64,000 nucleotides of DNA from Alphaproteobacteria bacterium (GCA_964291415.2 OZ219918.1:864001-928000); one strand, 5' to 3'; shown: positions 15,010 to 32,437, counted from the first letter of the stretch. The notes: generated from the letters alone by a model not told the origin. A program made the numbers and translations.

Positions 15010-16502
15010 GACGCGAGTCCGAGTTTGGCGGCGAGTCCTATGCGCTGCAGCTTGCCGGTTGCTCCCTTGGGGATCTCGTCGAGGATAATCACCTGGCGGG
15101 GAACCTTGAAGGCAGCCAGACGAGTCCCGGCAAAGGATCGCAGCGCCGCTTCCGAGGGAGCTTCCCCGTCTCGTGGCACGACGGCAACGGCAACTTCTTC
15201 GCCGAGCGTGGCATGGGGAACGGCGAATGTGACCGCCTGATCGACAGCGGGGTGTGCCATAAGGACCTCGTCCACCTCCAGCGGGCTGATCTTCTCGCCT
15301 CCCCGGTTGATGATTTCCTTGAGCCGGCCGGTGAGCCACAGGTAGCCGCTTTCATCAAGCAGACCCTGATCACCCGTGCGGAACCAGCCATTCTCGAAGG
15401 CTGCACCGTTGGCGGCATCGTTGTTCTCGTAGCCTCCGGTGACACTGGCGCCCCGGATCACGACCTCGCCGGTTTCTCCGGCTTGAAGGAGATGACCATC
15501 CTCCTCATCCATGATCGCCACCTCCGGCCCTGCGGCGATGCCTACCGAACCGGCATGCCGTGGCGCCGGGGGAAGAGGGTTGGAGGTCATCTGATGGGAT
15601 GCCTCGGTCATGCCGTAGGATTCGATCACCGGGCAGCCGAAGGTTGCTTCGAGTTCTTCCATGACCCGCGATGGCAGCGACGCCGAGGATGACCGGATCA
15701 GTCTCAGATCCAGTGAGGCCAGCGCCGCGGCGTTGCGCGGCGCGCGGGCGAGAATCGCCTGGTGCATGGTTGGAACGGCCGTGTACCACGTGGGCCGCAC
15801 GTCCTCGCACCAGGAGAAAAACCTCAGGGGATTGAATCCCGGAGCGCAGTGAACACTGGCGCCGGCCCGCATGGTCGAGAGCACGGCCCCGACAAGTCCG
15901 TGGATGTGGAAAAGAGGCATGATGTTGAGCGCCCGGTCGTCGGGAGAAAGGGCGAGGCTCTGCGCGATGTTCGCGGCCGAGGCGGCGAGATTGTCCCGCG
16001 ACAACGGCACGATCTTGGGTCGCGACGTGGTTCCCGAGGTGTGAAGCACGAGCGCCGTTCCGGCATCGTGGGTGACCGTGCGACCGCCCGGTTCCTCGCG
16101 CAGGCGCAACGTGAAGGTACCGGCGCTGGCGTTCTCTTCAACGCACATCTCGGCCAGTCCCATGCCCAGATCGCGCGCCACGGCGACGGCGTCGGATCCT
16201 GATCCCTCCTCGACAATCAGCAGCCGGGCATCGAGATCCTCGAGATAGAACCTGAATTCGTCCCCGCGATAAGCCGGATTGAGCGGGGCGGCCGTCAGAC
16301 CCGAGGCCACTCCGAGAAAGGCCGAGGCCATCTCGGGACCATTGGGAAGGACAAGGGCAACGCGATCGCCGTCTGCGAGACCGGCCTGACCGAGAACGCC
16401 CCGGGTGTCGGCGATCTGCCGGGCCAGGTCGCGATAGCTCGTCGAACGACGCCCGGGAGCACCGATGGCCGGAGCATCGGCTGCGCCCATGAGGTCGACC
16501 AT
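15006..16502 (-). CDS. Acyl-CoA synthetase, oxalate-CoA-ligase-like
   Basis: LHTSGTTSRPK, MPLFHIHGL, YTAVPTMH, RSSSASL, YGMTEASHQM, TGKLQR. Confidence 0.85.
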   Translation of the reverse strand: MVDLMGAADAPAIGAPGRRSTSYRDLARQIADTRGVLGQAGLADGDRVALVLPNGPEMASAFLGVASGLTAAPLNPAYRGDEFRFYLEDLDARLLIVEEGSGSDAVAVARDLGMGLAEMCVEENASAGTFTLRLREEPGGRTVTHDAGTALVLHTSGTTSRPKIVPLSRDNLAASAANIAQSLALSPDDRALNIMPLFHIHGLVGAVLSTMRAGASVHCAPGFNPLRFFSWCEDVRPTWYTAVPTMHQAILARAPRNAAALASLDLRLIRSSSASLPSRVMEELEATFGCPVIESYGMTEASHQMTSNPLPPAPRHAGSVGIAAGPEVAIMDEEDGHLLQAGETGEVVIRGASVTGGYENNDAANGAAFENGWFRTGDQGLLDESGYLWLTGRLKEIINRGGEKISPLEVDEVLMAHPAVDQAVTFAVPHATLGEEVAVAVVPRDGEAPSEAALRSFAGTRLAAFKVPRQVIILDEIPKGATGKLQRIGLAAKLGLAS

Positions 16503-17515
16503 CACGCGTGCCTGAGTCGTTCCTGGCGGGCCGACTCAATCATCGGACCAAGAACCTTGTCGTGAAACCTGTCGCAGCCGATGCAGAGATTCCGGTAGGG
16601 ACGGCCCTGCGGAGTGTCGATCTCGGATTCGGCGAGGAAGCGTTCCGTCGTCCAGCCGAACGCGTGTCCCATGGTCTCCGGTTTTCCCCGGTTGATGGCC
16701 TCGTAGACCGGATGATCGCGCAGGCTGTCGATGATGTCATCGAGATGTTCATGAACGAGGTTGCCGATGGGAAAGCGCGTCTTGAGGCAACAGGGATAGA
16801 CATTTCCGGTCGGCTCGATGGAGACCTCCGAACCCGTCCGCCCTTTCTCGAGAAAGTTCAGTCCGCCCGACCAGGCGTTGCAGAAGTTGTCGTCCATACC
16901 GGCACGCGACAGTCCGTTCTTCCAGGCGCGTCCGCGCGGCCACAGCTTGCCGATCCAGGTATCCTCGTTGGCTCCGAAGATGTTGAAGAGAGGCGGGCTG
17001 TCATCACCAGGGGGCCCGTTTCCGGCTTCGCGCACGCCCGCGGCCTCGAACATGGCGAGCAGCTTTTCGCGCAAGGCCCTGGCACGTTCCTCGCGGTTGA
17101 TGCCGACATGGTAGCTGTCGAAGCCGGAGACCGAGACCATGCTCACGTTCCTGGCGAGGAGCTCGTCGAGAATGCGTTCGGTCAGGCGGTCCCCGGTCGT
17201 CTGCACGACGAGGCGCACTTGGCCACGATAGCGGGAATGGATCTGCTCGAGGGCCGGATAGAGCACGGATCGGCGCACCGGCTCCAGCAGCACCTCGCCT
17301 CCCGAGACGATGATGCGTCCCGCCACCGCCTCTCCGGTGGGGGCGGTGACCATCATGCTTCCCGGAAGATGATCGATGATCCGGGGAACATTCGCTTGCG
17401 ACTGCTCCACAACCCGCTGGAGTTCGTCCCGGACATAGGGGCGGAACCGGTCATCGTAGCAATGACGGCAGCGCCGATGGCACAGCCATGTCAGCACAAA
17501 GTAGATCGATTCCAT
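16502..17515 (-). CDS. Radical SAM protein with SPASM/twitch-like C-terminus
   Basis: CHRRCRHC, SGGE, then FC...VSIEPTGNVYPCC...LCIGC. Confidence 0.9.
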   Translation of the reverse strand: MESIYFVLTWLCHRRCRHCYDDRFRPYVRDELQRVVEQSQANVPRIIDHLPGSMMVTAPTGEAVAGRIIVSGGEVLLEPVRRSVLYPALEQIHSRYRGQVRLVVQTTGDRLTERILDELLARNVSMVSVSGFDSYHVGINREERARALREKLLAMFEAAGVREAGNGPPGDDSPPLFNIFGANEDTWIGKLWPRGRAWKNGLSRAGMDDNFCNAWSGGLNFLEKGRTGSEVSIEPTGNVYPCCLKTRFPIGNLVHEHLDDIIDSLRDHPVYEAINRGKPETMGHAFGWTTERFLAESEIDTPQGRPYRNLCIGCDRFHDKVLGPMIESARQERLRHA

Positions 17516-18032
17516 GCGTTGCCGCCCGATGCACAAGGGGAGGCGTCCATATGACCTGCATTTGCCTCATGACGCAACATCGCGCAGGTCGTGCCGCTGC
17601 GCGGCCGTCTGCCGGTCTCGTGCCACAGTTCTGACGCATCATGCTCCGGCCGCATCCTCTCAAGGGCAATGTCCTCGCCTGCAGACGGTCTGCTTGAACC
17701 ACGTCTCCCGCAGGTTGAATGCCGAGCTCGCAGACAAGAATCGTGACTGCGGCCCTGGATCGCGGCTGTCCTCGCAGTTCACAGGGCTGGTCTCTCCATC
17801 GTTGTTGTGGAGGTGACGCGGCGAGGGAGTGATGACACGACACATCCGGGTCAAGGCCGCCTGACGATGCCTGACACGCGGCGTGGCAAGCGAGCGGATG
17901 GGAGGGTGTGACGCCTTGATCGGGTGGGCAAGGCGCATCGCGACGGATGAGCGCTGCGCCTTGTCGTTGAATGAAGGAGCGATCGATCCAGCGACAGGAT
18001 CCCGTTGATCTTCGCGTGCGACTGCGGCAGCA

Positions 18033-18049
18033 TGATTGCATTGCAATCA
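18033..18049. promoter_or_regulatory. Palindromic operator upstream of the fitA-like antitoxin
   Basis: Perfect inverted repeat TGATTGCA-T-TGCAATCA ending 28 bp before the antitoxin ATG. Confidence 0.7.
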
Positions 18050-18077
18050 GCGCAGGTCTGGATGCCGGGGCAAGGAC

Positions 18078-18320
18078 ATGGCAAGCATTACAATCCGCAA
18101 TCTTGATGACGAGGTGAAAACGCGTCTGCGTGTGCGCGCCGCCGCGCACCATCGCTCCATGGAAGAGGAGGCGCGACAGATTTTGCGGGAGGCAGTCGGA
18201 AAACCGGCCGTTCCGGCAAACCTTGGTGAAGCCATTCATCGCCGTTTCGCCGCATTGGGCGGGGTGGAGCTTGACCTTCCGCCGCGCGAGGGAATGCCTG
18301 AGCCTCCACACTTCGATTGA
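18078..18320 (+). CDS. FitA-like ribbon-helix-helix antitoxin
   Basis: MASITIRNLDDEVKTRLRVRAAAHHRSMEEEARQIL; AGGA RBS; precedes a PIN toxin. Confidence 0.88.
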   Translation: MASITIRNLDDEVKTRLRVRAAAHHRSMEEEARQILREAVGKPAVPANLGEAIHRRFAALGGVELDLPPREGMPEPPHFD

Positions 18321-18922: not shown

Positions 18923-20206
18923 TCAGCGCTCTTCGTTTCTCCGTTCGTGCAGGGAGGCGTCGAGGATTTCGACGGGATGCACGCACGGCACGCCGGTGGA
19001 TGCGGTGATGTGCCACCGGCAGGTCTCGCTGTCGCAGACGACGGCATCCGGTGCAGAGTCGGCAATCCTGTCGATCAGGGTCTGACCGACCGCCGTGGCG
19101 ATGTCGTAGCGGTCACGGTCGTAGCCGTAGGTGCCGGCTACGCCGCAGCAATCCGATTCGGAGACCTCAATCGACAGGGATGGCACGAGACGAAGCAGTT
19201 CGAGCGCCGGCACGCCCATGTCATGACCGCGCAGCTGACATGGACCGTGATAGAGAATGCGCCGGGGCAGCGGGCTGAGGACCGAAGGCAATCGATCGAG
19301 GTGGCGGTCGCGCAGGAATTCACAAATGTCGGTGACGGCATTCGCTACCGACCGTGCGTCGTCATCGTGCAGATCGAGATAGGCAGCGTACTTCTTCCGA
19401 AGCGTCAGGCTGCAGCTGGTCGAGGTACACAGGATGGGTCTTCCCGCACCGGCCGCGGGAGCGAGGCCGCGAACAACGCCGTCGGCCCGGTGACGCGCGG
19501 CGCTCCATTCGCCGCTTGACAGCATGGGCAGCGAACAGCACGCATCCGTCGGCGCTTCGACCGCATATCCGAGTCGATTCAGCACCCGGACCGCCGCGAT
19601 CCCGACTTCGGCGTCGTAGTGGGCGACCGCGCATCCCGTGTAGTAGGCGACGACAGGGCCGTCAGGCTGACGACGCGTCGACAGCCAGCGGCGGAATGCG
19701 GAACCGGAGACCTGCGGTAGAGGCGCGTCCCGGTGAATGCCGAGCAGGCGATGGACGACCGCACGCAGCAATCGGTTGCCCAGCAGGCGGTTGGCGAGAG
19801 CGGGGACGGCACCGAACACCCGGCCGATCACGTCGGGCCGGTTCAGAAGGCGTTGACGGAGAGGGGGAGTGTCGCCGGCGTCAACGGCAGCCGCTCTGGC
19901 GATGGTGATGATATCGGAGATCGCGACTCCGTTCGGACAGACGCTCGTGCAGATTCCGCAGCCGCTGCACAGTCTCGACGATCGTTCTTCGACGGTATCG
20001 ATGACACGAAACCGCTGTGCTTGCGGTCCGGTGTACTTTGGTCCCGGGAAGAGTTCCGTGACCGATGCGACGGGGCAGTAGGCTCGACAGATGCCACACT
20101 TGGTGCAGTGGTCCATGGTCCGGAGCACCGCGTCGAGACCGAGTTCGTGGCGCTCGTCGGCAGGGCGGCTCGCGGGAGCGGGAGGCGATGACCCGGGCAT
20201 CGTCAT
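18923..20206 (-). CDS. glpC: GlpC-like Fe-S / CCG-domain subunit
   Basis: Two CxxCxxCxxxCP motifs, FPGPK, CCG-type CCSLP and CCGVAGTYG, CETCRW. Confidence 0.8.
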   Translation of the reverse strand: MTMPGSSPPAPASRPADERHELGLDAVLRTMDHCTKCGICRAYCPVASVTELFPGPKYTGPQAQRFRVIDTVEERSSRLCSGCGICTSVCPNGVAISDIITIARAAAVDAGDTPPLRQRLLNRPDVIGRVFGAVPALANRLLGNRLLRAVVHRLLGIHRDAPLPQVSGSAFRRWLSTRRQPDGPVVAYYTGCAVAHYDAEVGIAAVRVLNRLGYAVEAPTDACCSLPMLSSGEWSAARHRADGVVRGLAPAAGAGRPILCTSTSCSLTLRKKYAAYLDLHDDDARSVANAVTDICEFLRDRHLDRLPSVLSPLPRRILYHGPCQLRGHDMGVPALELLRLVPSLSIEVSESDCCGVAGTYGYDRDRYDIATAVGQTLIDRIADSAPDAVVCDSETCRWHITASTGVPCVHPVEILDASLHERRNEER

Positions 20207-21696
20207 TCCTCGGCCATCTCGCAGACGATACCGACACATCGGCGCCATTCGGTCCACGCGCCTTCGCGCTCGTCGGCTCCCAGTGCCGGTTCGAACGTCG
20301 TTGCGCTCACCGGCATGGCGGCAACGTCCGCCGTGGTAAGCTGTTTCGCTCCGATGCCCGCGAGCAATGCTGCGCCGAGGGCCGTCATGTCGGGTTCGTC
20401 CGAGACCCTGATGGGAACTGCGAGCAGGTCGGCCTGGCGTTGCATCAAGTAGCGGTTCGCTGTCGGTCCGCCATCAGCCCGCACTTCGTCGAGGCCGCCG
20501 CCCAGGCGTTCATCAAGCGCCTGCACGATGCCTGCGCACTGGAACGCGATTCCATCGAGGAGGGCCCGGGCGAGGTGTCCGACACCGGTATCGAGGCCGA
20601 TGCCAAAGGTGCATGCGCGGGCGCTCGTTTTCCAGTACGGCGCGGACAGGCCCGCGAGACTGGGTACCATCACGACTCCGCCGCTGTTCGGGACGCTCTC
20701 GGCCAGGCTCGAGGAACCGGCTGCCGACGGGAGAAGGCCGACGTCCACAGCCCAGTCGATCGCCGAGCCGACGGAGAACACCCCGCCTTCGATCGTGTAG
20801 TCGACACCGGCGCCCAGGTCCCAGGCGATGAACACCGCCAGCCTGCCGTCTGGTGCGACTGGATCGCGACAGGTGTTGACTTCGATGAAGGCGCCGGTGC
20901 CATAGGTGGCCTTGACGACCGAGGAATCCCAGCACCCCTGCGCAAACAGCGCCGCATGGGCGTCGACGGCGTCGGCCGTGATTCGGACCGTTGGGGCGTC
21001 GATCTCCGGATGACTGATCACCCCGAAGTCGCCGACAGTTGGTCGGACCTCCGGAAGCAAGTCGATGTCGAGGCCGAACGCATCCAGCAGATCGGGGTCC
21101 CATTGTGCCTGGTACAGGTTGAGCAGCGCAGTGCGCGATCCGGTAGCCGCGTCCGTGGCGTGCACGGCGCCGCCGGTCAACCGCTCGATCACGTAGGAGT
21201 CGGTGCCGCCGAGTCTGAGCGAGCCGTCTGCCCGCGCGGTGGCTACGTCGTCGACGGATTCGATCAGCCATCGGAACTTCGAGGCGGAGAAGTAGGGGTC
21301 AAGAAGGATCCCGGTCCGGTCACGGACCAGATCTCCGACCCCGTCACGGGCGAGCGCATCGCACATGGCGGCCGTTCGTCGATCTTCCCATGAGATCGCG
21401 GGAGCGAGTCCGTTACTTCCTCCCGCCGACCACGCCATGCTGGTTTCGCCCTGATTGGCGATTCCGACTCCCGCAACGTCGCGCCACGTACGGCCCGCCG
21501 CCTCCAGCGCGGCCGCGGCTGCCCCGATGCTGGTCGCCAGGAAGTCTTCGGGGTCGTGTTCGACCCAACCGGGCCGGGGTGTGCGCTTCGGCATCGGAAC
21601 CGAATGGGTGGCGAGTTTTCCGACATGGGGATCGAAGACGAGGGCCGTGGTCGTCGAACCGCCGTGGTCGATTCCGACATAGAGTCCGCTTTCCAT
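20203..21696 (-). CDS. FGGY-family kinase, divergent glycerol-kinase paralogue
   Basis: PGWVEHDP, DPYFSASK, KATYGTGAF, GLSAPYW, DGG. Has NQGET and DAH where GlpK has NQRET and DQQ. Confidence 0.85.
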   Translation of the reverse strand: MESGLYVGIDHGGSTTTALVFDPHVGKLATHSVPMPKRTPRPGWVEHDPEDFLATSIGAAAAALEAAGRTWRDVAGVGIANQGETSMAWSAGGSNGLAPAISWEDRRTAAMCDALARDGVGDLVRDRTGILLDPYFSASKFRWLIESVDDVATARADGSLRLGGTDSYVIERLTGGAVHATDAATGSRTALLNLYQAQWDPDLLDAFGLDIDLLPEVRPTVGDFGVISHPEIDAPTVRITADAVDAHAALFAQGCWDSSVVKATYGTGAFIEVNTCRDPVAPDGRLAVFIAWDLGAGVDYTIEGGVFSVGSAIDWAVDVGLLPSAAGSSSLAESVPNSGGVVMVPSLAGLSAPYWKTSARACTFGIGLDTGVGHLARALLDGIAFQCAGIVQALDERLGGGLDEVRADGGPTANRYLMQRQADLLAVPIRVSDEPDMTALGAALLAGIGAKQLTTADVAAMPVSATTFEPALGADEREGAWTEWRRCVGIVCEMAEE

Positions 21697-21699
21697 CAC

Positions 21700-22941
21700 C
21701 TATCCCTCCAGGTACGCATGGGCCGACCGGGCGGCGAGCCAGCCGGTGACGATGGCGACGCCTTCCGCGGACGCTTCCAGTGCGGGATTCCAGTGGGCAA
21801 GCGTTTGGCCCGTGACGTAGACGTTCTCGAGCGATCGCGATTCGGAAGTCAGTGGCCGCAGCGCGTAGTCGGTTTCCACTCCGGTGCGATGCAGGGCGTC
21901 CAACGATGCGCCGGCGTTCGCGGCGTTCAGGGGCGCCGTCTGCCGGACCGGAAGATCGAAAACCGTTTCCCGAATTTCGCCGCGGGATTCCACGTTGAGT
22001 CCGCCCATGGCGACGCCTCCGGTGGCAACGATGAACGCTGACGCGGTGTGCACGCGCCCGGCGGTGTCAACGACATCGATAGGATGTCCGTCCTCCGCCT
22101 TCGTCCCGGTCACGCGGGTGCCGATGTGGATGGGGGTGCCTTGTCCTGCGATAGCGCGATCCATCGTCCGCTGCAGACGCATCCCGGGAACGCTCGGCGG
22201 CAGGGTCGGCACCTCAAGGCACGGCCTGCCGAGTGCCTGCTCGGCGGACCGCCTGACGCGGGCATGGTCGGAGATGCCCAACACGGCCGGGAACAGGATC
22301 AATTCCGCGGAATCCGGCATCCGGGACCCGAGGTCGCGGAAATAGCCGCAAAGATCGGGGTGACGATCGAAGCTGCGGGCGAGGTCGACCGACTCGGATC
22401 CGCCGCCGGGCGGAGGCGCCTCGATGACCACGACGTCCGATCCCAGGCGGCGCAGTCCATTTGCGGTCAGGTCGGCGGGAAAGTCGCGGTGGGAGCGAAA
22501 ACGCACGACGGCAGCCCTTCGGCCCTCAATCGCCGCCACGAGCGCCTGCGAAGGAGTCGGGCCGTACGTTGGAACGCCGAGGCCGGCGGGGGTGAGCGTC
22601 TGAACATTGCAGCCGTTTCGGTTGAATCCCGCGCCGATTCCGTCGGTGGCGGAGAAGAACCACTCCAGGGCATCCTGAATCACCGATTCACCGACAATGC
22701 GGTATGGATGCCGTGCGTGGAGGTCCGGCATGCCTTGGCCGGGCGACGAGAGAATCCCGCCATTGGCGTCGAACCCGCCGGCACAGCATGCGTACCCGAG
22801 TACGCGGATGCCGCCTGGCGCATAGTGCAGCGAGCCCCGCCCCGCGGAGAGAATTCGCACCGAACGACCGAGTTCCAGCAACCGCAACGCGGCGACGAGT
22901 GCGTCGAGCTCGTTGCCGACGATGACGACATCGGACTTCAT
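21700..22941 (-). CDS. glpB: GlpB-like flavin subunit
   Basis: HPY, FPAVLG, EVPTLPPSVPGMRL, GVETD...LRP, EGVA. Confidence 0.8.
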   Translation of the reverse strand: MKSDVVIVGNELDALVAALRLLELGRSVRILSAGRGSLHYAPGGIRVLGYACCAGGFDANGGILSSPGQGMPDLHARHPYRIVGESVIQDALEWFFSATDGIGAGFNRNGCNVQTLTPAGLGVPTYGPTPSQALVAAIEGRRAAVVRFRSHRDFPADLTANGLRRLGSDVVVIEAPPPGGGSESVDLARSFDRHPDLCGYFRDLGSRMPDSAELILFPAVLGISDHARVRRSAEQALGRPCLEVPTLPPSVPGMRLQRTMDRAIAGQGTPIHIGTRVTGTKAEDGHPIDVVDTAGRVHTASAFIVATGGVAMGGLNVESRGEIRETVFDLPVRQTAPLNAANAGASLDALHRTGVETDYALRPLTSESRSLENVYVTGQTLAHWNPALEASAEGVAIVTGWLAARSAHAYLEG

Positions 22942-24506
22942 CGGTAGTCGTCCGTCGGCAGGAGATCGTCGGTCAGGCGGATTCCGAGGATGTCGCGGTG
23001 CACGGTGTCGCTCAGCAGCGCCTGCCGTGCCTGATCACCCCACGCGGTCTTGCAGACTCCCTTGAGACGTTCCGTCCAGAATCGACCAATTGACTCTTCG
23101 GCGGAGAAGTCCGTGTCGGCATTCGCAAGAAGGTCGGCGGCGCGCACGGCACAGAAGGTGCCTTGACAGGGTCCGAACCCGATACGCAGGCGCCGACGCA
23201 GGTCATGCAGTCGGGAGATGCTCGCGTCCCCGATCGCTTCGGTGACGGTCGACCGATCGACCGCTTCGCACTCGCAGAGTGTCCTCGCCTGGGTCTGCGT
23301 CGCCTCGGCGGTCATGTGACCGGCGACGGGACGCCAGGCGGCTTCACGGCGCTTCGGGGCGACCGGGGACGTTGCGGTCAGGCAGGTTGTAGTGATGCCG
23401 AAGTGCCGGCAGACAAGGTCGGCCACGTCTTCGGCCATGGACCGGTGCGTGGTCAGCGAACCGCCACACACGGTGAAGAACCCACGGGCACCGCCATTCG
23501 CGTGGTCGATGACCATGTGCCGCCGCGGCAGGGGTTTCCCGGGAGGCCAGTCCGGCAGTTTCACGAGCGGCCTCACGCCGGCCCAGGCGCGAAACGCGCG
23601 GCGATCCCGAATCCCCGGCAAGAGCGGCTCGGCGCCGTCCAGGAGTTCCTGAACTTCTGTCGGCTTGACCAGGGTCGTGTCCGGACTGTCAACCACCTCC
23701 GATGTCGTGCCGAACAGCGATACGGTTCCGGTCGGCACGATGATGTCGTGACTGCCTGCGGGGCGGCAGCGGTTGATGACCTGTCCGACAAATCGGTGGG
23801 AGAGGACGATGATGGCGCCCTTGGTCATTTCCAGCTCGACGCACTGGCCCGCTAGGGCTGCGACCCGGCCCGACCAGGCGCCGGCGGCGCTGATGACAGC
23901 GTCGGTCTCGATTCGTGTTTCGCCACCGGCGCCGGCGATTCGCACTGCGCGGACAACGCCACCAAAGACGTCGATTCCGGTGACCTGATGCCGGGTCAGC
24001 ACCTTCCCGCCGCGCCGGGTCACGTCTTCAGAGAGGCGGTTCACGAGTCGCCATGGATCGATGGTCGCGTCGGGAACCGAGAAGGCGCGGCGGATGCTGC
24101 GACTGATGCAGGGTTCTTCTGCCATGACACGGTCGGGATCGAGCTCTTCGCAGGGAATGGCCGCCTGCCTGCATCCCTCGATAAAGCGTTCCGGAAACTC
24201 GGGAGGATCTTCGTCGAGGGACACGAACAGGCCTCCCGTGCTCTCGACCGCGTCGGGGACGACTTCGGCCACAGTCCGACGCTCGCGCATGCACTCCGCG
24301 GCATAACCCGAATCGGAAACCGCGTAGCGGGCGCCGCTCTGCAGCATGCCGTGGAATCGGCTGCTGGTGCCGGAGCCAAGGTCGCCGAACTCGACCAGGG
24401 TGACGTTGAGGCCCCGCATTACGAGGTCGCGGGCAACGGCACAACCCGTGGCACCCCCGCCGATAACGACGACCCGCAGGTGACGGTGTGGTGTGGAACT
24501 CGTCAT
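22938..24506 (-). CDS. glpA: GlpA-like FAD dehydrogenase with C-terminal BFD-like Cys motif
   Basis: IGGGATG, GTSSRFHGMLQSGARYAV, AGVRPL, CECE...GPCQGTFC. Confidence 0.82.
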   Translation of the reverse strand: MTSSTPHRHLRVVVIGGGATGCAVARDLVMRGLNVTLVEFGDLGSGTSSRFHGMLQSGARYAVSDSGYAAECMRERRTVAEVVPDAVESTGGLFVSLDEDPPEFPERFIEGCRQAAIPCEELDPDRVMAEEPCISRSIRRAFSVPDATIDPWRLVNRLSEDVTRRGGKVLTRHQVTGIDVFGGVVRAVRIAGAGGETRIETDAVISAAGAWSGRVAALAGQCVELEMTKGAIIVLSHRFVGQVINRCRPAGSHDIIVPTGTVSLFGTTSEVVDSPDTTLVKPTEVQELLDGAEPLLPGIRDRRAFRAWAGVRPLVKLPDWPPGKPLPRRHMVIDHANGGARGFFTVCGGSLTTHRSMAEDVADLVCRHFGITTTCLTATSPVAPKRREAAWRPVAGHMTAEATQTQARTLCECEAVDRSTVTEAIGDASISRLHDLRRRLRIGFGPCQGTFCAVRAADLLANADTDFSAEESIGRFWTERLKGVCKTAWGDQARQALLSDTVHRDILGIRLTDDLLPTDDYR

Positions 24507-24507
24507 G

Positions 24508-26523
24508 TCATGCCACGGCCGTTGAGCGGAGCCCAAGTTCGAGCTTGCGGCGCTCGGCCCAGGCGTTGATCAAGCGATCAGCGGCGATCGCGATGAATGC
24601 CACGCAGATACCCGCGGTGACGCCCCGTCCGGGATCGACCTTGGAGAGGGCGATCAACGTTTCCTGCCCCAGATCCCGCGTTCCGACAAGCGCCGTGATC
24701 ACCAGCATGCTGAGCCCCATCATCAGAGTCTGGTTCACTCCGAGCATGATGTCGGGCAATGCCAGCGGCAGCTGCACGCGCCGCAGTATCTGGCCGCGGG
24801 TGCAACCCATGGCCCGAGCCGCCTCGACGAGGTTCGAGGGCACCTGGCGAATGCCGCTGTCCGTGTAGCGAATTGCCGGCACGATCGCGTAGAGCACGAT
24901 GGCGATCATTGCGGAGAAGTCGCCGACACTGAACAGCATGATCACGGGAATCAGGTACACGAACGCTGGAAGCGTCTGCAGAGTATCGATGACGACCTGC
25001 ACGATCTGGTGAACTCTCTCGTTTCCGGCTGCCACGATGCCGATGGGAATGCCGATCAGACTGGCGAGGAACACGCAGACGCCGACGAGGTAGGCGGAAA
25101 TCATCGCCTTTTCCCACAGCCCCACGGCGGCGATGAAGGCGATCAGGGAAGTGCTCAGAATCGCCAGACGAACGCCGCCCAGGTGGAATCCGATGGCGCT
25201 CACCACCAACACGACGCTGAGCCAGGGCAGGGACAGCATGAAGCTCTTGAACGGCTTCAGGAGGTAGATGAAGAATGCGTCCCGGACGGCGCCGATGTAC
25301 ACGTAGAGATTGATGTTGATCCAGTCGATGATGGTGTCCCAGAACCGGCCGGTGGTGACCGTCCAGTTCTCCGGAATCTGGGCGAATGCGGGAATCCAAA
25401 TTCCGGCGACCGTGACGGCGATGCCGAAAAACACGGCTCCCGCGAGCAGATGGGATCCGGCGATGCGTCCGTGCCCCCGTGTGCTGTGGGCGGGACGGCG
25501 GGCGGCGAGACGCTGACTCATGCGGTCCAACACGATGGCGACCAGAGTGATGGAGATTCCCGCTTCGGCACCCTGCCCGATTCGGAGCGCCTTCAGGGAC
25601 TGCCAGACATCGAACCCGAGGCCTCCGGCCCCGATCATCGATGCGATGATCACCATGTTCAGCGTCAGCATGATCACCTGGTTGACGCCAACCATGACGC
25701 GCGGCCGAACTGACGGCAACATCACCTTCCACATCATTTGCCGGCGCGAGCAACCGGCCATGCGGCCGAATTCCATGACCTCGCTGCTCACCTGGGACAG
25801 CGCGACCCTGGTCACCCGCGCCATGGGAGGCAGGGCATAGATCAGCGTAACCACCATGGCGGCGGCGGGTCCGTAACCGAACAGCATCAGCGCGGGCACG
25901 AGGTAGGCGAACACCGGCATCGTCTGCATGAAGTCGAACACCGGTGTCAGTATCCGCTCGACTGCCCGCCACCGATGTGCCGCGATACCGAGTGCGACAC
26001 CCGTTGCGATTCCGATCATCACGGCGACGATGATGGATGCGAATGTCAGCATGGTGCTGTGCCACAGCCCGATGAACGCGACGTAGAGAAAGGACAGCGT
26101 GATGAACGCGGTCAAACGCCCGCTGCCCAGGGACGCTCCCAGCGCGGCGAACACCGCAATCAGGCCCAGCCACGAAAGGGGCGGAACGTGGATGGCCGAC
26201 CCGTCGCCGCCGTCGAACGTGAATCCGGTGGCGAGCAGTCCCTTGAGGAACAGCATCGGAGCCTCGAGCACGGTCCCGAACCCGCGGGTCAACTCCTTGA
26301 ACGTGAACAGACCGAAATCAGCTTCGTTTACCAGCCAGTTGATTGATCGGGTCAACCCGTCAGCGACAGGCACGACCCAGCCGCCGGGATACACGTCGAT
26401 CCAGGGAAGCACAGGAGCGAGGAGTGCGATCAGGGTGGTCGCGACGGCCGCAAGGGCAATCAGCAGCGCGCCTCGGCCGGGCCGAAAGGGAAATGATGGG
26501 CGATGTGCGCCAACGGCCGTCAT
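24508..26523 (-). CDS. Betaine/proline-type ABC permease with two fused ProW-like domains
   Basis: MQTMPVFAYLVP...GVNQ and LQTLPAFVYLIP...EAARAMG...GVNQ. Confidence 0.9.
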   Translation of the reverse strand: MTAVGAHRPSFPFRPGRGALLIALAAVATTLIALLAPVLPWIDVYPGGWVVPVADGLTRSINWLVNEADFGLFTFKELTRGFGTVLEAPMLFLKGLLATGFTFDGGDGSAIHVPPLSWLGLIAVFAALGASLGSGRLTAFITLSFLYVAFIGLWHSTMLTFASIIVAVMIGIATGVALGIAAHRWRAVERILTPVFDFMQTMPVFAYLVPALMLFGYGPAAAMVVTLIYALPPMARVTRVALSQVSSEVMEFGRMAGCSRRQMMWKVMLPSVRPRVMVGVNQVIMLTLNMVIIASMIGAGGLGFDVWQSLKALRIGQGAEAGISITLVAIVLDRMSQRLAARRPAHSTRGHGRIAGSHLLAGAVFFGIAVTVAGIWIPAFAQIPENWTVTTGRFWDTIIDWININLYVYIGAVRDAFFIYLLKPFKSFMLSLPWLSVVLVVSAIGFHLGGVRLAILSTSLIAFIAAVGLWEKAMISAYLVGVCVFLASLIGIPIGIVAAGNERVHQIVQVVIDTLQTLPAFVYLIPVIMLFSVGDFSAMIAIVLYAIVPAIRYTDSGIRQVPSNLVEAARAMGCTRGQILRRVQLPLALPDIMLGVNQTLMMGLSMLVITALVGTRDLGQETLIALSKVDPGRGVTAGICVAFIAIAADRLINAWAERRKLELGLRSTAVA

Positions 26524-26742
26524 CGGCCGCGATCGATGTCCGACGGTCCGTCGCGTTGAACAACGCTCATGATCTTCTACCCGGCTACCCGGTACGCTGG
26601 AATGCAGGGTACTCCGGCAAGCGGCGCGGAAACCATGTTTCGGCCGGCAGTCGCAAGAGTCCGGACGGGAAGGCAGTGAGCCCGAGAGACGTCATGGCGT
26701 CCGGGATGGCCGGCTGGTTCAGGGCGCATCGCAGGCTCCTGC

Positions 26743-26786
26743 TCGGGAGGCCGGCGCCGGACCTTCGTCCGGCGCCGGCCTCCCGA
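26743..26786. terminator. Strong hairpin after the SBP gene (mRNA stabiliser or terminator)
   Basis: 20-bp perfect arms TCGGGAGGCCGGCGCCGGAC / GTCCGGCGCCGGCCTCCCGA with a 4-nt loop. Confidence 0.7.
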
Positions 26787-26819
26787 ACCGAACCGCCCTG
26801 TCGTGCTCTGAGAACGGAC

Positions 26820-27791
26820 CTATTCGAGCCAGGATTTCCAGGTTTCCTCGTTGGCTTCGATCCACTGCTCGGCAACTGTCCGGGTCGGCACGCCATCCAC
26901 GTCGCTCATGTAGACCATTTCACCCATGGTCTTGCCGTCGAGCTGGAACTTGCGCCAGACGTCATAGGCCTTCGGCCAGATGGATTCGCCACCCTTCCAG
27001 GCGGATTTCCACATGTGGCCACGTGGACGTCCGCAGTCGTACGCCATCGTCGAATTGGGTCCCCAGGACGGGTCGTCGTAGCAGGCGTCCTCGTACTCCG
27101 GCCACTCGACGAACTCGCCTTCGTAGAGCGCAGGCAACCAGAACGGTTCCCATGTCCAGCCGACGATCGGCTGCTTGCGTTTGATGGCCGCGGTGAACTC
27201 GGCGGTCAGGGCGCCGTCGCTCCCTGCGTGAATCACCTCGAAGGGCATGTCCAGCGCGGCGACGCGCTCCGCATCGTGACCACCCCACTCGATGGGACCG
27301 CTCAAGAACCGCGCCTTGGGCGCTGTCTCGGCGACCGACAGGGCCTCCACGCAATCCGGTTCAAGCAATGCCTTCCAGTCGGGGAGTCCCGGACACACGT
27401 CCTTGACGTACATCGGGTACCACCAGTCCTCGTTCACGGCGATTCCCATGTTGCCCATGTTGAGGACCTCACCGCTTCCCCAGGCGTCGGCCATCGCCGC
27501 CTTGGCTGTCGTATCCCATCCGGGGGATCCGATGTGCAGATCACCGGCTTTCAGGCCTGCGAACTGACCGAGGTAGTCTGCCGGAGTGTACTCTACGTTG
27601 TAGCCGAGCTTTTCGATCAGCGTCCCGTAGATGTACATAATGATGTTGTCGCCGGAGTAACCCATGATGACGAGCTTGATCGGATCCTTGGATTCCGGGG
27701 TTTCGGCACTCGCAGGCGTCATGAATCCGGACCCTGCCATGAGCCCTGCAATCACCGCTGCCGCCATGAATCGACGTGTTTTCTGCAACAT
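26820..27791 (-). CDS. Betaine/TMAO-type (OpuAC/TmoX-like) substrate-binding protein
   Basis: Signal peptide, ESKDPIKL, GYNVEY, WWYPMYVKDVCPGLPDWKAL; GAGGAGG RBS. Confidence 0.88.
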   Translation of the reverse strand: MLQKTRRFMAAAVIAGLMAGSGFMTPASAETPESKDPIKLVIMGYSGDNIIMYIYGTLIEKLGYNVEYTPADYLGQFAGLKAGDLHIGSPGWDTTAKAAMADAWGSGEVLNMGNMGIAVNEDWWYPMYVKDVCPGLPDWKALLEPDCVEALSVAETAPKARFLSGPIEWGGHDAERVAALDMPFEVIHAGSDGALTAEFTAAIKRKQPIVGWTWEPFWLPALYEGEFVEWPEYEDACYDDPSWGPNSTMAYDCGRPRGHMWKSAWKGGESIWPKAYDVWRKFQLDGKTMGEMVYMSDVDGVPTRTVAEQWIEANEETWKSWLE

Positions 27792-27954
27792 GGCCACCTC
27801 CTCGATGAACTCGTGCGTGCTTGTGCTCCCGATCGTTGGGATGCTGAATGCATGTCAATAGTATCCCGGTTTCGAAAAAGAACAAGCAATGAAATGCGTG
27901 TTATCGATTGTTTTGGAGTGACGAATGATCGACTCGGATGTACAGAACAGACAT

Positions 27955-28755
27955 ATGGGATCTGGAGTCAGGAACACCGCGGGCCGTCGCCTCGAGATTC
28001 AGAGACGACTGCTGGTTGAAGGGGCAGTCACCGTCGAGGCGCTGTCGCGTGATCTCGGCGTATCGGAGGCTACGGTCCGGCGCGACCTTACGATTCTCAG
28101 CGAAGAGGGATCGGTTCGCCGAACCCATGGAGGTGCGGTCATCGAGGCGCCGCGCGGTGCCGACCAGGCTTTCGCCCTGCGCGAGCAACTCGACTCGGAT
28201 GCCAAGAGGCTCATAGCCCGCTCCGCGCTGTCTCTGGTCGATCCCGATCAGACGCTGTTCATGAACGACGGTTCGACCGTCCTCGCGCTTGCGAGGGAAC
28301 TGGTCGCTGAGCGTGTCGCCTTGACCATCGTGACACCTGGCGTGAACATCGCGACGTACCTTTCGGAGAATCCCGCCGTCACGGCCTACCTCCTAGGCGG
28401 TCGGGTTCGGCACCGCACGCTCGGAACCTCGGGCGGCTTCGCCGAGGAGATGCTCGCTACGTTCAATGCCGACATCGCGTTCATCGCAGCCGAAGGGTTC
28501 TCGGTGCGCGACGGACTGTCGTTTTCATACGAGTCCGATGCCCGGATCGCCCGCCTGATGAGCCAGCGGGCGACGAGAACGATCGTTCTGGCGACGTCGC
28601 GGAAACTGGACCAGAGAGATCGAATTGTCGCCTTGCCTTCTGCGGCGGTCGACACTCTGATTACCGATTGTTCCGACCATGAGCGGCTGGCGAACTTCTC
28701 GAGTGCGGGTATCGATGTGGTTTCCTGTGCCGGAACAAGCGGAGCAACGCGCTGA
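27955..28755 (+). CDS. DeoR/GlpR-family transcriptional regulator
   Basis: VSEATVRRDL...RTHGGA, DGSTV, LLGG; divergent from the SBP gene. Confidence 0.92.
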   Translation: MGSGVRNTAGRRLEIQRRLLVEGAVTVEALSRDLGVSEATVRRDLTILSEEGSVRRTHGGAVIEAPRGADQAFALREQLDSDAKRLIARSALSLVDPDQTLFMNDGSTVLALARELVAERVALTIVTPGVNIATYLSENPAVTAYLLGGRVRHRTLGTSGGFAEEMLATFNADIAFIAAEGFSVRDGLSFSYESDARIARLMSQRATRTIVLATSRKLDQRDRIVALPSAAVDTLITDCSDHERLANFSSAGIDVVSCAGTSGATR

Positions 28756-28878
28756 GTTTCGGGTAGGCGCCTTCCGGTACCTGTTGTGTCCGGAGTTGGA
28801 CCTTCAAGATCCGAGTGGTGTTGACGTCGCGCGCATCAGGTCATGCGGAAGCACGGCGAGAGCTGCCAGGCCCTTCAC

Positions 28879-29037
28879 ATGGTCCGTATCCTGCCTGGCG
28901 GCCGCAATAGCCCACGCCTGCGGGTGTGTGCCGCCGAGCGCTATCGCCCGATGGAAGGCGAAATGCAGCAGAATCCCGAGCTGCCGGTCAGAGAACCGGC
29001 TGTCACGGTGGACCTTGGTGAAGCCTCTCATCGGTGA
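28879..29037 (+). pseudogene. Decayed second copy of a FitA-like antitoxin
   Basis: RLRVCAAERYRPMEGE...EPAVTVDLGEASHR* aligns with RLRVRAAAHHRSMEEE...KPAVPANLGEAIHR of 18078-18320; both share ACCTTGGTGAAGCC. Confidence 0.7.
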
Positions 29038-29104
29038 GTGAACGCCGACTATGGATTTGGGCGGCCCGCGAAGATGCGGAAGGTCGCCTTTCCGGGAAAA
29101 AGGG

Positions 29105-29393
29105 GGCAATTCCCATGAACTGGGCGAGTGCGCGGTTTACTGCGATCATGTCGGCATCGTCGAGATGTCCGAAAACCTGATCCACCATGACGTAGGATCG
29201 CACGCGCAGACCATTGCCTTCGGAGGGTGCAACCGGAACACGGGATCAGCCGAGTGTCCAGCGCCATCGAGTTCGGTAGCGCGACAGTGATCGAGGGTGT
29301 CAGATCGGCGAAATGGTGACTGAATCAGCAGGGGGGACGCGACCTACCGTGTTCACTCTGCAAGGCGATGCTGGCGAAGTCGTCGCCCCTCAC
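29105..29393 (-). pseudogene. Frameshifted PemK/MazF-family toxin
   Basis: Pieces in different frames: VRGDDFASIALQSEHGRSRP / HFADLTPSITV / PSEGNGLRVRSYVMVDQVFGHLDDADMIAVNRALAQFMGIA. GTG start overlaps the antitoxin stop. Confidence 0.75.
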
Positions 29394-29638
29394 TCGCGGT
29401 GTCCGGCTTTGAGGGCGTCGAGGTGCTCAGCGAGATCGGCTGCGGCGGCGTCCATGAACTGCAAGAGTTCCGGGTCGGCGCCGTTGGCTTCGTCGACGAT
29501 CGCTGCCTGGCGGCCGCACTCTTCGACGAAGTCGGGGGCCCGGGTGTCGGGAACCCGGATCTGGACCTTCAGGCCTTGGGCCCTGCGTGCGGCTCTGTGC
29601 TTGTCCGCGCATTGCGCGCCGGTGGATGCAGAGGACAT
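29390..29638 (-). CDS. MazE-like (DUF3018-type) antitoxin, possibly eroding
   Basis: KHRAARRAQGLKVQIRVPDTRAPDFVEECGRQA; GGAG RBS; directly upstream of the PemK remnant. Confidence 0.7.
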   Translation of the reverse strand: MSSASTGAQCADKHRAARRAQGLKVQIRVPDTRAPDFVEECGRQAAIVDEANGADPELLQFMDAAAADLAEHLDALKAGHRE

Positions 29639-29980
29639 GGTGCCGCTCCTGTCGGATCAACGCACTTTACGTGTAGCGCATTTGGTTGTTGCCAGAAGCG
29701 TCCACGGTTCCTCGACGTTTTTCGCGCCGACGTTTCGCGGGGAGCCAGCGCTGGATCCCCGTTTCCGTCATGACCGCATCCACCTTCGCCTCCGGCACCA
29801 GGCCTTTCGGAATCTGCATGTCGAGCCGTACCGTCGGCTCGTCTCCATTGTGGCCCTGGCCCATGAGCCCCCCTTGTCTTCGAATCGGGCGCCGCCCCGA
29901 AAGCACGTTCCCGCCACCGTCTCCTCGTGGTTCTTCGCGGGCGTCCCGGGTCCTGTCGTGACGATTGTCACTGACCTGCG

Positions 29981-32437
29981 TTATCCGCGCATGCGAGTGC
30001 CTCGGGGATCATAGGCTGCCTGTTTCAGGGGGCGCATCGGGAGTTTCCTTTGGCCCAGCCCGATCTCGTAGGATCCTTCGAGCAGCGTCCGGAACGGCGC
30101 ACCACGCGGGCAGGCGACGTAGCCCATGCTGAGCGAAAGCCCGGTCCGAAATCCGCGGCAACCCGATGTGGTGTGCCCGGCGAGGACCCCGTTGCGATAG
30201 ATGGGTTCATCGTGGAGCAGCATGGGCTCGGCATCTTCGACGGCGAACATCAGGAGGTGTCGTTCCACACCCGTCTCGCGCCGTCGATGCAGCGCGTTGC
30301 AACCGAGGAATCCGCCCGGCTTGTCCCAGGCGACGGCGAACGCTAGACCGGCTTCAAGGGGTGTGGAGTCCGGCCCCAGTTCGTGCCCCCAGTGACGGAA
30401 GCCCTTTTCGATCCGGCAACTGTCAAGGACCAGCATTCCCGCGTGTGAGAGACCATGGCCTGCGCCGGCCTCAAAGAGGGTCTCGTAGACATGACCGGCG
30501 TACTCGACCGGCACACCAAGCTCCCAGCCCAGTTCGCCGGCAAAGCTGATTCGGGTGGCGCGCACCGGCGCCATTCCCAGGGTGATGCGCTGCATCGTTG
30601 CAAACGGGAACGCCTCCGGAGACAGATCAGCATCCGTCACCCGAGACATCAAATCACGGGACAGAGGCCCCATGAGGCCGAGGACACACTCGGTCATGGT
30701 GGCATCACCGATTGTGACGTCGAGTTCCAGCCTGGCTCGTTGTCGTTCGATCCATGCTAGATCCTTCTGGCGTGTCGCGGCGCCGCTCACCATGCGAAAG
30801 CGTGTCTCGCTTTCACGCGTGACCGTGACGTCGGCCTCAATTCCGCCGTGGCGGTTCAGCATCGGCGTGTAGACGACCTTGCCCTCGGCAACGTCGACGT
30901 CGTTGGCGCAGAGGTGCTGCACCAGGACAAGGCAATCACGCCCGGCAATGTCGATTTTTGTGAAGGGAGAAAGATCAAGGAGCGCGACCCGGTCACGGAT
31001 CGCTGCACCCTCTCTGGCGGCAGCCGGCCACCAGCACTGCGGACCATAACTGTAGCGGAACGATCGTTCATCCCTCGTGGTGGCGAACCAGAGGGGTCTC
31101 TCCCACCCAGCGGCCTCGCCAAGGAAGGCGCCGGCCCGTTCGTGGCAGTCGTGCAGGACGGAGCGACGGAGGCCCCGCGCCGTGGCCATCTGCCGCAACG
31201 GCCAGTGCATGGCCAGTTGATTCGCGACGGCTTCGTCCATGCGCTGAACGAGAAACGATTTCGTTGCGGCGCTTCGGTCGAATCGGGCGATATCGACCTC
31301 CCAGAGATCCATCGGAGGCTCGCCCGCATCGATCCATTCTGCCATGGCCTTGCCGACTCCCGCAGACGACATCATGCCGATGGAGTTCATGCCCGCCGCG
31401 ACATAAAAGCCACGCAGGTAGGGCGACTCTCCCATGAGCTGCCTGGTGTCGGGAGTGAAGCTCTCCGGCCCGTTCATGAAGTGCTGAATGCCGGTTTCGG
31501 AGAGACGGGGCATGCGGTGCAGCCCTGCCTTCATGAAGGGTTCAAACTGATCCCAGTCCTCGGGCAACTCGAGGAATGCACGATCACCATCAGGACCCGT
31601 GGCATCCCACACCTTGGGGCAGGGTTCGAATCCGCCCAGGACCACCTTTCCCGTGTCGCCCTTGATGTAGATACCGTTGTCGAGGTCGCGAAACACGGGC
31701 AACGGATCGGTGAGTCCGCTCATGGATTCGGTGACCACGTACATGTGTTCGACGGCCTGCAACGGCACGGGAACCCCCGCCATGCGCCCGATCTCGCGCG
31801 CCCAGGCACCCGCACAGTTAACCACGCTCTTGCAGCGAATAGTCTCGCCGCTGGAAAGCCGGACGGCGCGGACGCAGCCGTGTTCGGCGACGATGCCCGT
31901 ACAGGCCACGTTCTCGGCAATGCGTATGCCTCCGGCACGCGCACCCTTCGCATAAGCCATACAGAGATCGACAGGATTGGCCTGGGCATCCTTGGCGACC
32001 CACAGGGCGCCGGCAAGATCGCGCGTCTCCAGGAAGGGTGCTTCTCCGGCGACTTCAAGCGGAGTCAGGATGCGGACGGCCAGACCCATCATCTCGCCCG
32101 TTGCGGCAATCCGGCAGAGCTCTTCCATACGCTCGCCGGTCGTCGCAAGCCAGTAACCCCCCGTCTCGCGAAAGCCGGTGTCCTGACCCGTTTCCTCCTT
32201 TAGACGTGGCAGGAGCTCAAGGGCATAGGCAGCAAGGCGCGTGAGGTTCATGCTGGCTCGCAATGGTCCGATGATGCCCGCCGCATGCCAGGACGTGCCG
32301 CTGGCCAGCTGATTGCGCTCAATGAGAAGAACGTCGTCCAGGCCAAGTCGTGCGAGATGGTAGGCGATCGACAGGCCGGTCACGCCACCGCCGACGATGA
32401 CAACCTGTGCAGTCTGCTGGTGCGATGTTGATGCCAT
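29981..32437 (-). CDS. GcvT-family FAD-dependent dehydrogenase (dimethylglycine/sarcosine-dehydrogenase-like) 1
   Basis: GGGVTG, GTSWHAAG, NGPESFTPD, GWERP, GELGWE, RIEKG, YDP. Confidence 0.9.
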   Translation of the reverse strand: MASTSHQQTAQVVIVGGGVTGLSIAYHLARLGLDDVLLIERNQLASGTSWHAAGIIGPLRASMNLTRLAAYALELLPRLKEETGQDTGFRETGGYWLATTGERMEELCRIAATGEMMGLAVRILTPLEVAGEAPFLETRDLAGALWVAKDAQANPVDLCMAYAKGARAGGIRIAENVACTGIVAEHGCVRAVRLSSGETIRCKSVVNCAGAWAREIGRMAGVPVPLQAVEHMYVVTESMSGLTDPLPVFRDLDNGIYIKGDTGKVVLGGFEPCPKVWDATGPDGDRAFLELPEDWDQFEPFMKAGLHRMPRLSETGIQHFMNGPESFTPDTRQLMGESPYLRGFYVAAGMNSIGMMSSAGVGKAMAEWIDAGEPPMDLWEVDIARFDRSAATKSFLVQRMDEAVANQLAMHWPLRQMATARGLRRSVLHDCHERAGAFLGEAAGWERPLWFATTRDERSFRYSYGPQCWWPAAAREGAAIRDRVALLDLSPFTKIDIAGRDCLVLVQHLCANDVDVAEGKVVYTPMLNRHGGIEADVTVTRESETRFRMVSGAATRQKDLAWIERQRARLELDVTIGDATMTECVLGLMGPLSRDLMSRVTDADLSPEAFPFATMQRITLGMAPVRATRISFAGELGWELGVPVEYAGHVYETLFEAGAGHGLSHAGMLVLDSCRIEKGFRHWGHELGPDSTPLEAGLAFAVAWDKPGGFLGCNALHRRRETGVERHLLMFAVEDAEPMLLHDEPIYRNGVLAGHTTSGCRGFRTGLSLSMGYVACPRGAPFRTLLEGSYEIGLGQRKLPMRPLKQAAYDPRGTRMRG

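Follow-up and report, generated by a model that had tools for sequence, protein, structure and literature searches.

In Escherichia coli, GlpK phosphorylates a primary hydroxyl and the three-subunit GlpABC flavo-iron-sulfur complex oxidises the 2-hydroxyl, under DeoR/GlpR-type control, and we take the haloarchaeal glpK-gpdABC cluster to be a parallel GlpK and GlpABC system. The same four protein families are encoded together with an ATP-binding cassette (ABC) importer and a DeoR-family regulator at positions 18923–28755 of a 64,000 nucleotide stretch from an alphaproteobacterium (Alphaproteobacteria bacterium, GCA_964291415.2, OZ219918.1:864001-928000; this whole stretch is called the window below, and positions are counted from its first letter). 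Unlike the E. coli system, this operon begins with a TmoX-type ABC importer and not with GlpF or GlpT, and its kinase gene lies between the glpB and glpC homologues. TmoXWV, the trimethylamine N-oxide (TMAO) importer of Ruegeria pomeroyi and SAR11, likewise has a permease of the ProW type, but the binding protein gene of the operon is associated with genes for a kinase and a dehydrogenase and not with one for a TMAO demethylase, and its ATPase gene is found across the regulator in related loci or is missing. Erythritol catabolism in Brucella and Rhizobium combines ABC import, the FGGY kinase EryA, the GlpD-like dehydrogenase EryB and the sugar-phosphate-sensing repressor EryD; the likeness is one of pathway logic, and the operon described here differs in having a three-subunit GlpABC-type enzyme, an OpuAC importer and no isomerase genes after these.

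On balance we think it probable, from the sequence comparisons given below, that the operon is a DeoR-controlled, self-contained catabolic module that would import, phosphorylate and oxidise a glycerol-type vicinal-diol solute with a methylated onium head. An earlier note on this DNA had proposed an import, phosphorylation and oxidation route for a diol-bearing onium compound; conserved linkage, substitutions in the substrate sites that extend across the clade, and separate canonical glycerol genes speak for such a route.

Six open reading frames (ORFs) lie head to tail on the minus strand. They encode, in order, an OpuAC/TmoX-type periplasmic substrate-binding protein (SBP) with a visible Sec signal peptide (26820–27797; PF04069), a fused two-domain permease of the ProW/ChoW type with two BPD_transp_1 stretches (24508–26523; 671 amino acids), a GlpA-like FAD dehydrogenase subunit with DAO and Fer2_BFD (BFD-type 2Fe-2S) domains (22938–24536; probable start 24506), a GlpB-like flavoprotein subunit with an FAD_binding_2 domain (21700–22941), a GlpK-like FGGY kinase (20203–21699; FGGY_N and FGGY_C domains) and a GlpC-like iron-sulfur subunit with CCG and Fer4 domains (18923–20257; probable start 20206). 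The DeoR-family gene (27925–28755, plus strand; PF08220 and PF00455) is divergent from them. A gap of 296 nt separates the SBP and permease genes, and from there on the genes are packed tightly: a single nucleotide (1 nt) lies between the permease stop and the likely GlpA ATG at 24506, an ATGA overlap joins the GlpA-like and GlpB-like genes, the kinase GTG directly abuts the GlpB-like stop, and the kinase and GlpC-like genes share another ATGA overlap, provided that the latter starts at 20206. These junctions show translational coupling. All seven genes are where the earlier note had placed them, in the order it gave, with the DeoR gene divergent and the genes from permease to glpC abutting or overlapping. 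A promoter and terminator scan gave no promoter-like sites and 7 terminator-like sites, against 5.4 expected.

That note had also listed glpF, glpT, ugp and glpQ as absent. The window has no MIP (glpF-type) and no GDPD (glpQ-type) gene, the genome matches to these families being on contig C4 only; as for glpT and ugp, a Pfam scan of the 44 window ORFs found no MFS protein and no CUT1-type binding protein, no family search having been aimed at those two.

Conservation of the module

In a congener, G016, the DeoR, SBP, permease and GlpA genes are present in the same order at 85–94% identity, followed by the start of the GlpB-like gene (83%), where the contig ends. To this we added 38 metagenome contigs taken from the alignment of kinase homologues, onto which the window proteins were mapped. 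Of the 19 metagenome loci that reach far enough upstream, 15 have the SBP and permease genes ahead of GlpA (the other four are L022/L023, L034 and L046). Thirty loci have sequence enough before the kinase to be judged, and in 29 of them, all but L036, a GlpB-like gene immediately precedes it; six further clade loci, which end no more than 300 nt upstream of the kinase, and L048 and L049, whose kinases are distant, are not counted here. Among the 27 clade loci that extend 1 kb or more beyond the kinase, 25 have the GlpC-like gene after it (L036 and L044 differ), and DeoR is divergent where the flank is present (14/15; L025 has an ATPase gene and no DeoR match, and L026 starts inside the SBP gene). 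Because the same order is found in the congener and in 15 metagenome contigs, the arrangement is far beyond chance, and the linkage, for which the earlier note had asked that neighbourhoods be compared, is not unique to this genome. Near-duplicate loci (L030/L031/L032, L022/L023 and L038/L041/L042) mean that the counts stand for fewer independent lineages, and the clade counts as a whole rest on nearest homologues, which are related to one another.

The module recurs in marine metagenome contigs, among them records named marine metagenome and Tara. Indirectly, from matching contig sizes, kinase and SBP clusters coincide on nine further contigs, one of them a 513,202-bp contig of a cultured Mesorhizobium, which the cluster tables suggest to be Mesorhizobium sp. 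M4B.F.Ca.ET.214.01.1.1. A scan of the genome collection with the GlpB-like protein returned one distant planctomycete fragment only.

The kinase and the dehydrogenase

The kinase has both the N- and C-terminal FGGY domains (PF00370, E = 3.6e-47; PF02782, E = 4.7e-31), and scores 434.9 bits against the GlpK model TIGR01311, for which the equivalog cut-off is 590.35. It was aligned to E. coli GlpK from the annotated K-12 record, and E. coli numbering is used throughout. Of the residues that we take to form the glycerol site of GlpK, E84, W103, Y135, D245 and F270 are kept and R83 is replaced by Gly. It further differs from GlpK in having Ala at Q246 and a changed phosphate-1 loop, where DQGTTSSR reads DHGGSTTT. 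These changes characterise a clade: among the 120 nearest homologues listed (53–95% identity) Gly is found at R83 in all and Ala at Q246 in 113, His11, Gly13 and Thr17 are also common to the kinase homologues, and the signature is the same in every clade locus, whichever transporter accompanies it. In contrast, Q11, T13, R17, R83 and Q246 are retained in E. coli GlpK, in this genome's own canonical GlpK and in all 17 GlpKs of the genus that exceed the cut-off. We note that the distant GlpK-like kinases of the metagenome loci L048 and L049 (38–41% identity) have Gly at R83 and keep Q246 and the DQGTT loop; they look like a separate subfamily in which the arginine has also been lost.

The dehydrogenase subunits depart from their models in a similar way. 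The GlpA-like protein scores 522.8 bits against TIGR03377 (cut-off 552.8) and the GlpB-like protein 197 against a cut-off of 327 and 141.8 against one of 174.15 bits, so that, with the kinase, three of the four catabolic proteins lie under the equivalog cut-offs. The GlpC-like protein, likely the quinone-reducing end of the complex, is above the cut-off of NF008369 (396.1 bits; cut-off 278) and below that of TIGR03379 (273.6; 279.9). Compared with E. coli GlpA and GlpD, and in GlpD numbering, the GlpA-like clade keeps R54, R317 and R332, which together with H50 and K354 are presumably near-substrate-site residues shared by GlpA and GlpD (H50 and K354 also by GlpO). Unlike GlpA, the clade has Gln at H50 (22/22), Ser at K354 (23/23) and His at Y358 (23/23). 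Both E. coli enzymes have His50, Lys354 and Tyr358, and all nine GlpDs of the genus have His50 and Lys354; position 358 varies among these nine and is uninformative. The kinase and the GlpA-like subunit have thus each given up a polar or positively charged residue where the substrate presumably binds; both losses would make sense if the substrate itself carried a positive charge.

The obvious alternative is that the operon serves ordinary glycerol or glycerol-3-phosphate catabolism, with a divergent GlpK and an aerobically used GlpABC that are co-transcribed with the importer of a common osmolyte (TMAO or choline) and have nothing in common with it but their regulation. The four catabolic proteins do match GlpK, GlpA, GlpB and GlpC best, the GlpC-like protein passes NF008369, among solved structures the closest relatives of the kinase are without exception glycerol kinases, and five of the six glycerol-site residues are kept. 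The strongest point for ordinary glycerol is that there is no GlpD or GlpO homologue in the genome besides the GlpA-like gene, and the GlpABC-like complex could also serve glycerol-3-phosphate here. On the other hand, Arg83 is Gly in 120/120 homologues and Arg in 17/17 genus GlpKs, and the genome has a canonical GlpK (615.6 bits with TIGR01311), which stands alone elsewhere, between a peptidase gene and an OYE-type gene. Nor does the lack of GlpD look like a gap that the operon fills: across the genus, 18 of 23 genomes have an over-cut-off GlpK and 11 of 23 an over-cut-off GlpD, and at least eight have GlpK with neither GlpD nor a GlpB-like gene, which makes the lack a habit of the genus. G016 holds the module and, besides it, a canonical GlpK (621 bits) and a GlpD (744 bits). 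G016 and the GlpK-only congeners indicate that the module is an accessory to the glycerol pathway rather than the local version of it. Finally, the coupling of the permease to GlpA is kept across contigs of very different base composition. We consider the ordinary-glycerol explanation unlikely.

A third GlpK-like paralogue (G000 C2:171209-172651, locus L056), outside the window, scores 490.8 bits, below the cut-off, and has Thr at both E. coli R83 and Y135. Its neighbours encode an SBP_bac_1 binding protein, a D-2-hydroxyacid dehydrogenase and a fused B12-type diol/glycerol dehydratase (large and medium subunits), and similar copies (493–494 bits) are present in the congeners G004 and G012; by its sequence it is another non-canonical polyol kinase locus.

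The importer and the regulator

The SBP is a member of the OpuAC family (PF04069, E = 1.5e-36; 126.7 bits, gathering score 21.2), and its closest solved relative is TmoX of R. pomeroyi (4XZ6, E = 7e-72). An excerpt of PMC8918994, citing Li 2015, gives the TMAO pocket of TmoX as W55, W102, F106, E131, W177, F220 and W222, the four Trp residues forming a cation-pi box and Glu131 bonding the oxygen. In the printed alignment the SBP has Y47, W94, A98, E123, W171, W214 and W216 at these sites, so that four of the seven are identical (W102, E131, W177 and W222) and the changes are W55Y, F106A and F220W; TmoX L178-K179 is replaced by Gly-Gly. The nine-position pocket therefore reads YWAEWGGWW where TmoX has WWFEWLKFW, with five differences. 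This signature is invariant in the 15 locus orthologues and present in 69 of the 73 nearest clusters. The clade is discrete, its 73 clusters being 59–90% identical to the SBP before identity falls to 54% or less, and outside it the pocket becomes WWGEW[AG]GW[YW]. Because the aromatic box and the hydrogen-bonding Glu are retained, the likely ligand has a trimethyl-onium or comparable head and, close to it, a hydroxyl or oxide; at three positions the pocket has a smaller residue than TmoX, which would leave room for more than TMAO. The same excerpt states that the SAR11 TmoX binds choline too, as would suit an osmolyte importer attached to ordinary glycerol genes; against that, the pocket differs invariantly from that of TmoX at five of nine positions.

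The permease scores 413.5 bits over two stretches with TIGR03416, and in 16 loci its orthologues (56–93% identity) come after the SBP gene. An ABC ATPase gene is missing from the operon, a point that the earlier note had overlooked. In 12 of 16 loci with a DeoR flank a ProV-type ATPase gene (58–68% identity to the L015 copy) is found just beyond DeoR; the corresponding ~1.2 kb of the window, between DeoR and a DMGDH-like gene (28756–29980), has no credible ORF and, by tblastn, no ATPase remnant. The sole ProV-type ATPase in the window (41668–42726) is part of a second OpuAC system and shares only about 46% identity with the ATPases of the related modules. The nearest candidate for a borrowed subunit is a ProV-like protein at C1:214989-216203, which is 57–59% identical to the module ATPases but adjoins its own fused permease. 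That ATPase and the 710-aa fused permease lie together outside the window (G000 C1:212860-216203), and tblastn found no OpuAC binding protein within about 8 kb of them; the pair mirrors the operon, being an ATPase and permease without SBP where the operon has an SBP and permease without ATPase. Two further ProV-like matches, C3:99355-100347 and C4:844-1836, have identical scores and identities, which suggests a duplicated contig end or a repeated element; the contamination figure of the genome is 8.99%.

The regulator has the HTH_DeoR and DeoRC domains of the DeoR family, and by its scores it is not a GlpR equivalog: its best NCBIfam match, the haloarchaeal GlpR, gives 156.2 bits (cut-off 300) and the other GlpR model 74.4 (cut-off 331). 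In 16 related loci a DeoR orthologue (40–89% identity) adjoins the SBP gene. The stretch that separates these two genes in the window holds a candidate operator, the inverted repeat AACAATCG-N16-TGCTTGTT (27881–27912, minus strand). We searched 13 intergenic regions, that of the window and those of 12 loci, which range from AT-rich to GC-rich, and nine contain a copy of the consensus AAC[AG]ATCA-N16-TGATTGTT with at most two mismatches; the spacer is 16 nt in six of the nine. We infer that DeoR binds the inverted repeat.

The substrate and the surrounding genes

In the route that we favour, the aromatic box of the TmoX-like SBP would capture the onium head, its Glu would bond a hydroxyl and the enlarged pocket would take the remainder of the molecule. 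Import would be through the fused permease, driven by the dedicated ProV-type ATPase in most relatives and by a borrowed one here. The GlpK-like kinase would then phosphorylate the free primary hydroxyl of the glyceryl part, the loss of Arg83 and Gln246 making room for a substituent at the other end and removing positive charge there. A membrane-associated GlpA/B/C-like flavo-iron-sulfur complex would oxidise the 2-hydroxyl to a ketone and pass the electrons to quinone, and the phosphorylated intermediate is the likely effector that would relieve repression by DeoR. No further enzyme is conserved beside the eight genes, the 79 flanking ORFs of 12 loci having hit unrelated families, and the oxidised product must hence reach central metabolism either unaided or with the help of housekeeping enzymes. 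With an O-linked substituent, enolisation of the 1-O-substituted dihydroxyacetone phosphate could give a hemiacetal, which would release the aglycone together with glyceraldehyde-3-phosphate; for a tertiary or secondary 1-amino analogue, an Amadori-type rearrangement could lead to breakdown, and a directly N-linked quaternary group could not easily be released in that way. This release chemistry slightly favours O-linked candidates such as deacylated betaine lipids.

The candidate substrates are deacylated betaine-lipid head groups, namely glyceryl-carboxyhydroxymethylcholine (GCC) or glyceryl-trimethylhomoserine, and 2,3-dihydroxypropyl-trimethylammonium, none of which we would rate as more than a minor possibility taken singly. 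According to an excerpt of PMC10362313, free GCC has been isolated from Symbiodiniaceae and giant clams. The SBP pocket looks small for a GCC-type molecule, which weighs against that candidate. In its boldest form, which we regard as a long shot, the proposal is that the module is the missing bacterial route by which the betaine-lipid head groups of phytoplankton (GCC from diacylglyceryl-carboxyhydroxymethylcholine, and glyceryl-trimethylhomoserine from diacylglyceryl-trimethylhomoserine) are mineralised. TmoX-derived import would be followed by the Arg83-less kinase acting on the glyceryl end and the GlpABC-derived quinone reductase acting at C2, and enolisation would give triose phosphate plus choline and glyoxylate, or homoserine betaine, an ether or acetal cleavage that would need no dedicated lyase.

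The onium head itself can be questioned. A non-quaternary amino-diol, for example 3-(di)methylamino- or 3-amino-1,2-propanediol, would become a 1-amino-ketone phosphate, which could rearrange Amadori-style to an iminium and hydrolyse to an amine and glyceraldehyde-3-phosphate; such chemistry should need no extra enzyme and would fit a module without any other conserved gene. The positive residues lost in the kinase and the GlpA-like subunit would fit any cationic substituent, and there is a loose link to C1 and methylamine genes (Fae in L036, a DMGDH-like gene in L040, and MttB in L023 and in the window). We know of no natural source of such amino-diols, and the SBP has an aromatic box that is complete on all four sides (Y, W, W, W, W), which in the excerpt of PMC8918994 is typical of trimethyl-onium binders; we think an amino-diol substrate quite improbable.

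A number of observations weigh against the proposed onium-diol module, beyond the missing second GlpD/GlpO and the best family matches already given. Every functional step is deduced from sequence, with GlpK R83 and GlpD H50 and K354 taken to be substrate-binding residues. The module is rare: the GlpB-like protein is found in 3 of 100 relatives, and among 400 class-level genomes, with the three best candidates scored per genome, none has a kinase match at E ≤ 1e-150. The operon of the window, G016, L021 and L047 are without the ATPase gene, and uptake in this strain may need a foreign ATPase or be impaired. Nor is the transporter constant. L046 has a TAXI-TRAP system upstream (its kinase looks disrupted), L034 has no transporter between DeoR and GlpA, and the L022/L023 lineage has one of the PhnS2T2U2 type, the solved relatives of which bind phosphorylated compounds; as a result of these variants the onium inference rests on the TmoX-like clade only. 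G003 has the same GlpABC variant as the module, but no kinase with it.

The neighbours in these variants are informative in their own right. In L022 the four catabolic genes are bracketed by a PhnS2 SBP gene upstream and PhnT2 and PhnU2 genes downstream ('putative 2-aminoethylphosphonate' type), all over cut-off, and the stop codon of GlpC overlaps the start of the ATPase gene; among solved structures, the closest relatives of this PhnS2 bind sugar phosphates or pyridoxal phosphate. The kinase of L036 lies beside genes for a type-2 glycerol-3-phosphate-oxidase-like flavoprotein, a formaldehyde-activating enzyme (Fae) and a choline-kinase-like protein, L040 has two choline-kinase-like genes and a DMGDH-like gene, and the G003 GlpABC genes adjoin a LysR gene, a gamma-butyrobetaine/TmpA-like dioxygenase gene and one for a GbdR-like regulator. 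These contexts point to the metabolism of a small amine or zwitterion, without fixing the compound, and the PhnS2 case leaves room for a zwitterion that contains phosphorus.

Among natural compounds in which glycerol is joined to a quaternary amine, glycerophosphocholine is the best known, and a glycerophosphodiester route from it, or from a related head-group diester, would read the operon differently: the choline end would be held by the SBP, glycerol-3-phosphate for GlpABC would come from an unlinked phosphodiesterase, and the kinase would salvage glycerol. The PhnS2T2U2 transporter that brackets the same four genes in L022, the choline-kinase-like genes that adjoin the module in L036 and L040, and the one GDPD gene in the genome, on C4, agree with this. 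It is met by the absence of a GDPD gene from the window and from the 79 flanking ORFs of 12 loci, by the loss of Lys354 in the GlpA-like subunit, and by the small TmoX-type pocket, in which the conserved Glu would face the phosphate; moreover, a phosphodiester route needs no kinase, least of all one without Arg83. We judge it rather unlikely, and return to the onium-diol module as the probable reading.

By the features that define them, the proteins of the module fall outside GlpK, GlpA, GlpB and TmoX; the families and the redox logic are familiar, and the substrate class is probably new. A literature search, which covered sources outside subscription journals and preprint supplements, found no account of this operon or of the bacterial use of glycerol-linked onium compounds. 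Quaternary amines and betaine lipids are large marine carbon and nitrogen pools, chiefly where phosphate is scarce, and if our reading is true the module has recruited a pair of enzymes from central metabolism to a new substrate. For the whole clade, automatic annotation as 'glycerol kinase', 'anaerobic G3P dehydrogenase' or 'glycine betaine transporter' is probably wrong. The module offers a clonable handle made up of one SBP, one kinase and a dehydrogenase of three subunits, and a diagnostic sequence signature marks each of these.

Beyond the regulator, three genes in the same direction encode a DMGDH-like protein (29981–32554; 857 aa), an MttB-family methyltransferase (32609–34168; 519 aa; PF06253, 672.7 bits; below the cut-off for Pyl-type trimethylamine methyltransferases) and a second DMGDH-like protein (34165–36606; 813 aa). 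By its gene families the block at 29981–36606 looks like one for quaternary-amine demethylation. The earlier note had suggested that the operon might feed it; conservation gives that no support, for the block accompanies the module in this window only, and of the 38 related contigs L023 has a distant MttB and L040 a DMGDH-like gene. In this strain it is possible that the route feeds these genes.

Farther along is the second OpuAC ABC system, which is complete (permease 40121–41671, ATPase 41668–42726, SBP 42862–43824), and its SBP has F/W/Q/E/W/Q/S/Y/Y at the TmoX positions. A Rieske oxygenase gene (38495–39886) adjoins it, BKACE and GMC oxidoreductase genes are also present, and the window is a quaternary-amine island. 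Its GC content around the operon is high (about 0.61–0.67), and ORFs at 17451–18311 and 29313–30014 were dropped as genes, for they match no family and have the composition that spurious high-GC frames usually show. Immediately downstream of the operon is a gene for a radical-SAM/SPASM protein with weak family matches (16502–17536), adjoined, at 15006–16505 and in the surroundings, by genes for a FadD7-like acyl-CoA ligase and a 2-dehydropantoate reductase-like protein. Near the start of the window, beside an MlaC gene, ORF 1047–3062 encodes a 671-aa protein with an MlaA lipoprotein domain in its last ~200 residues only, an unusually long MlaA.

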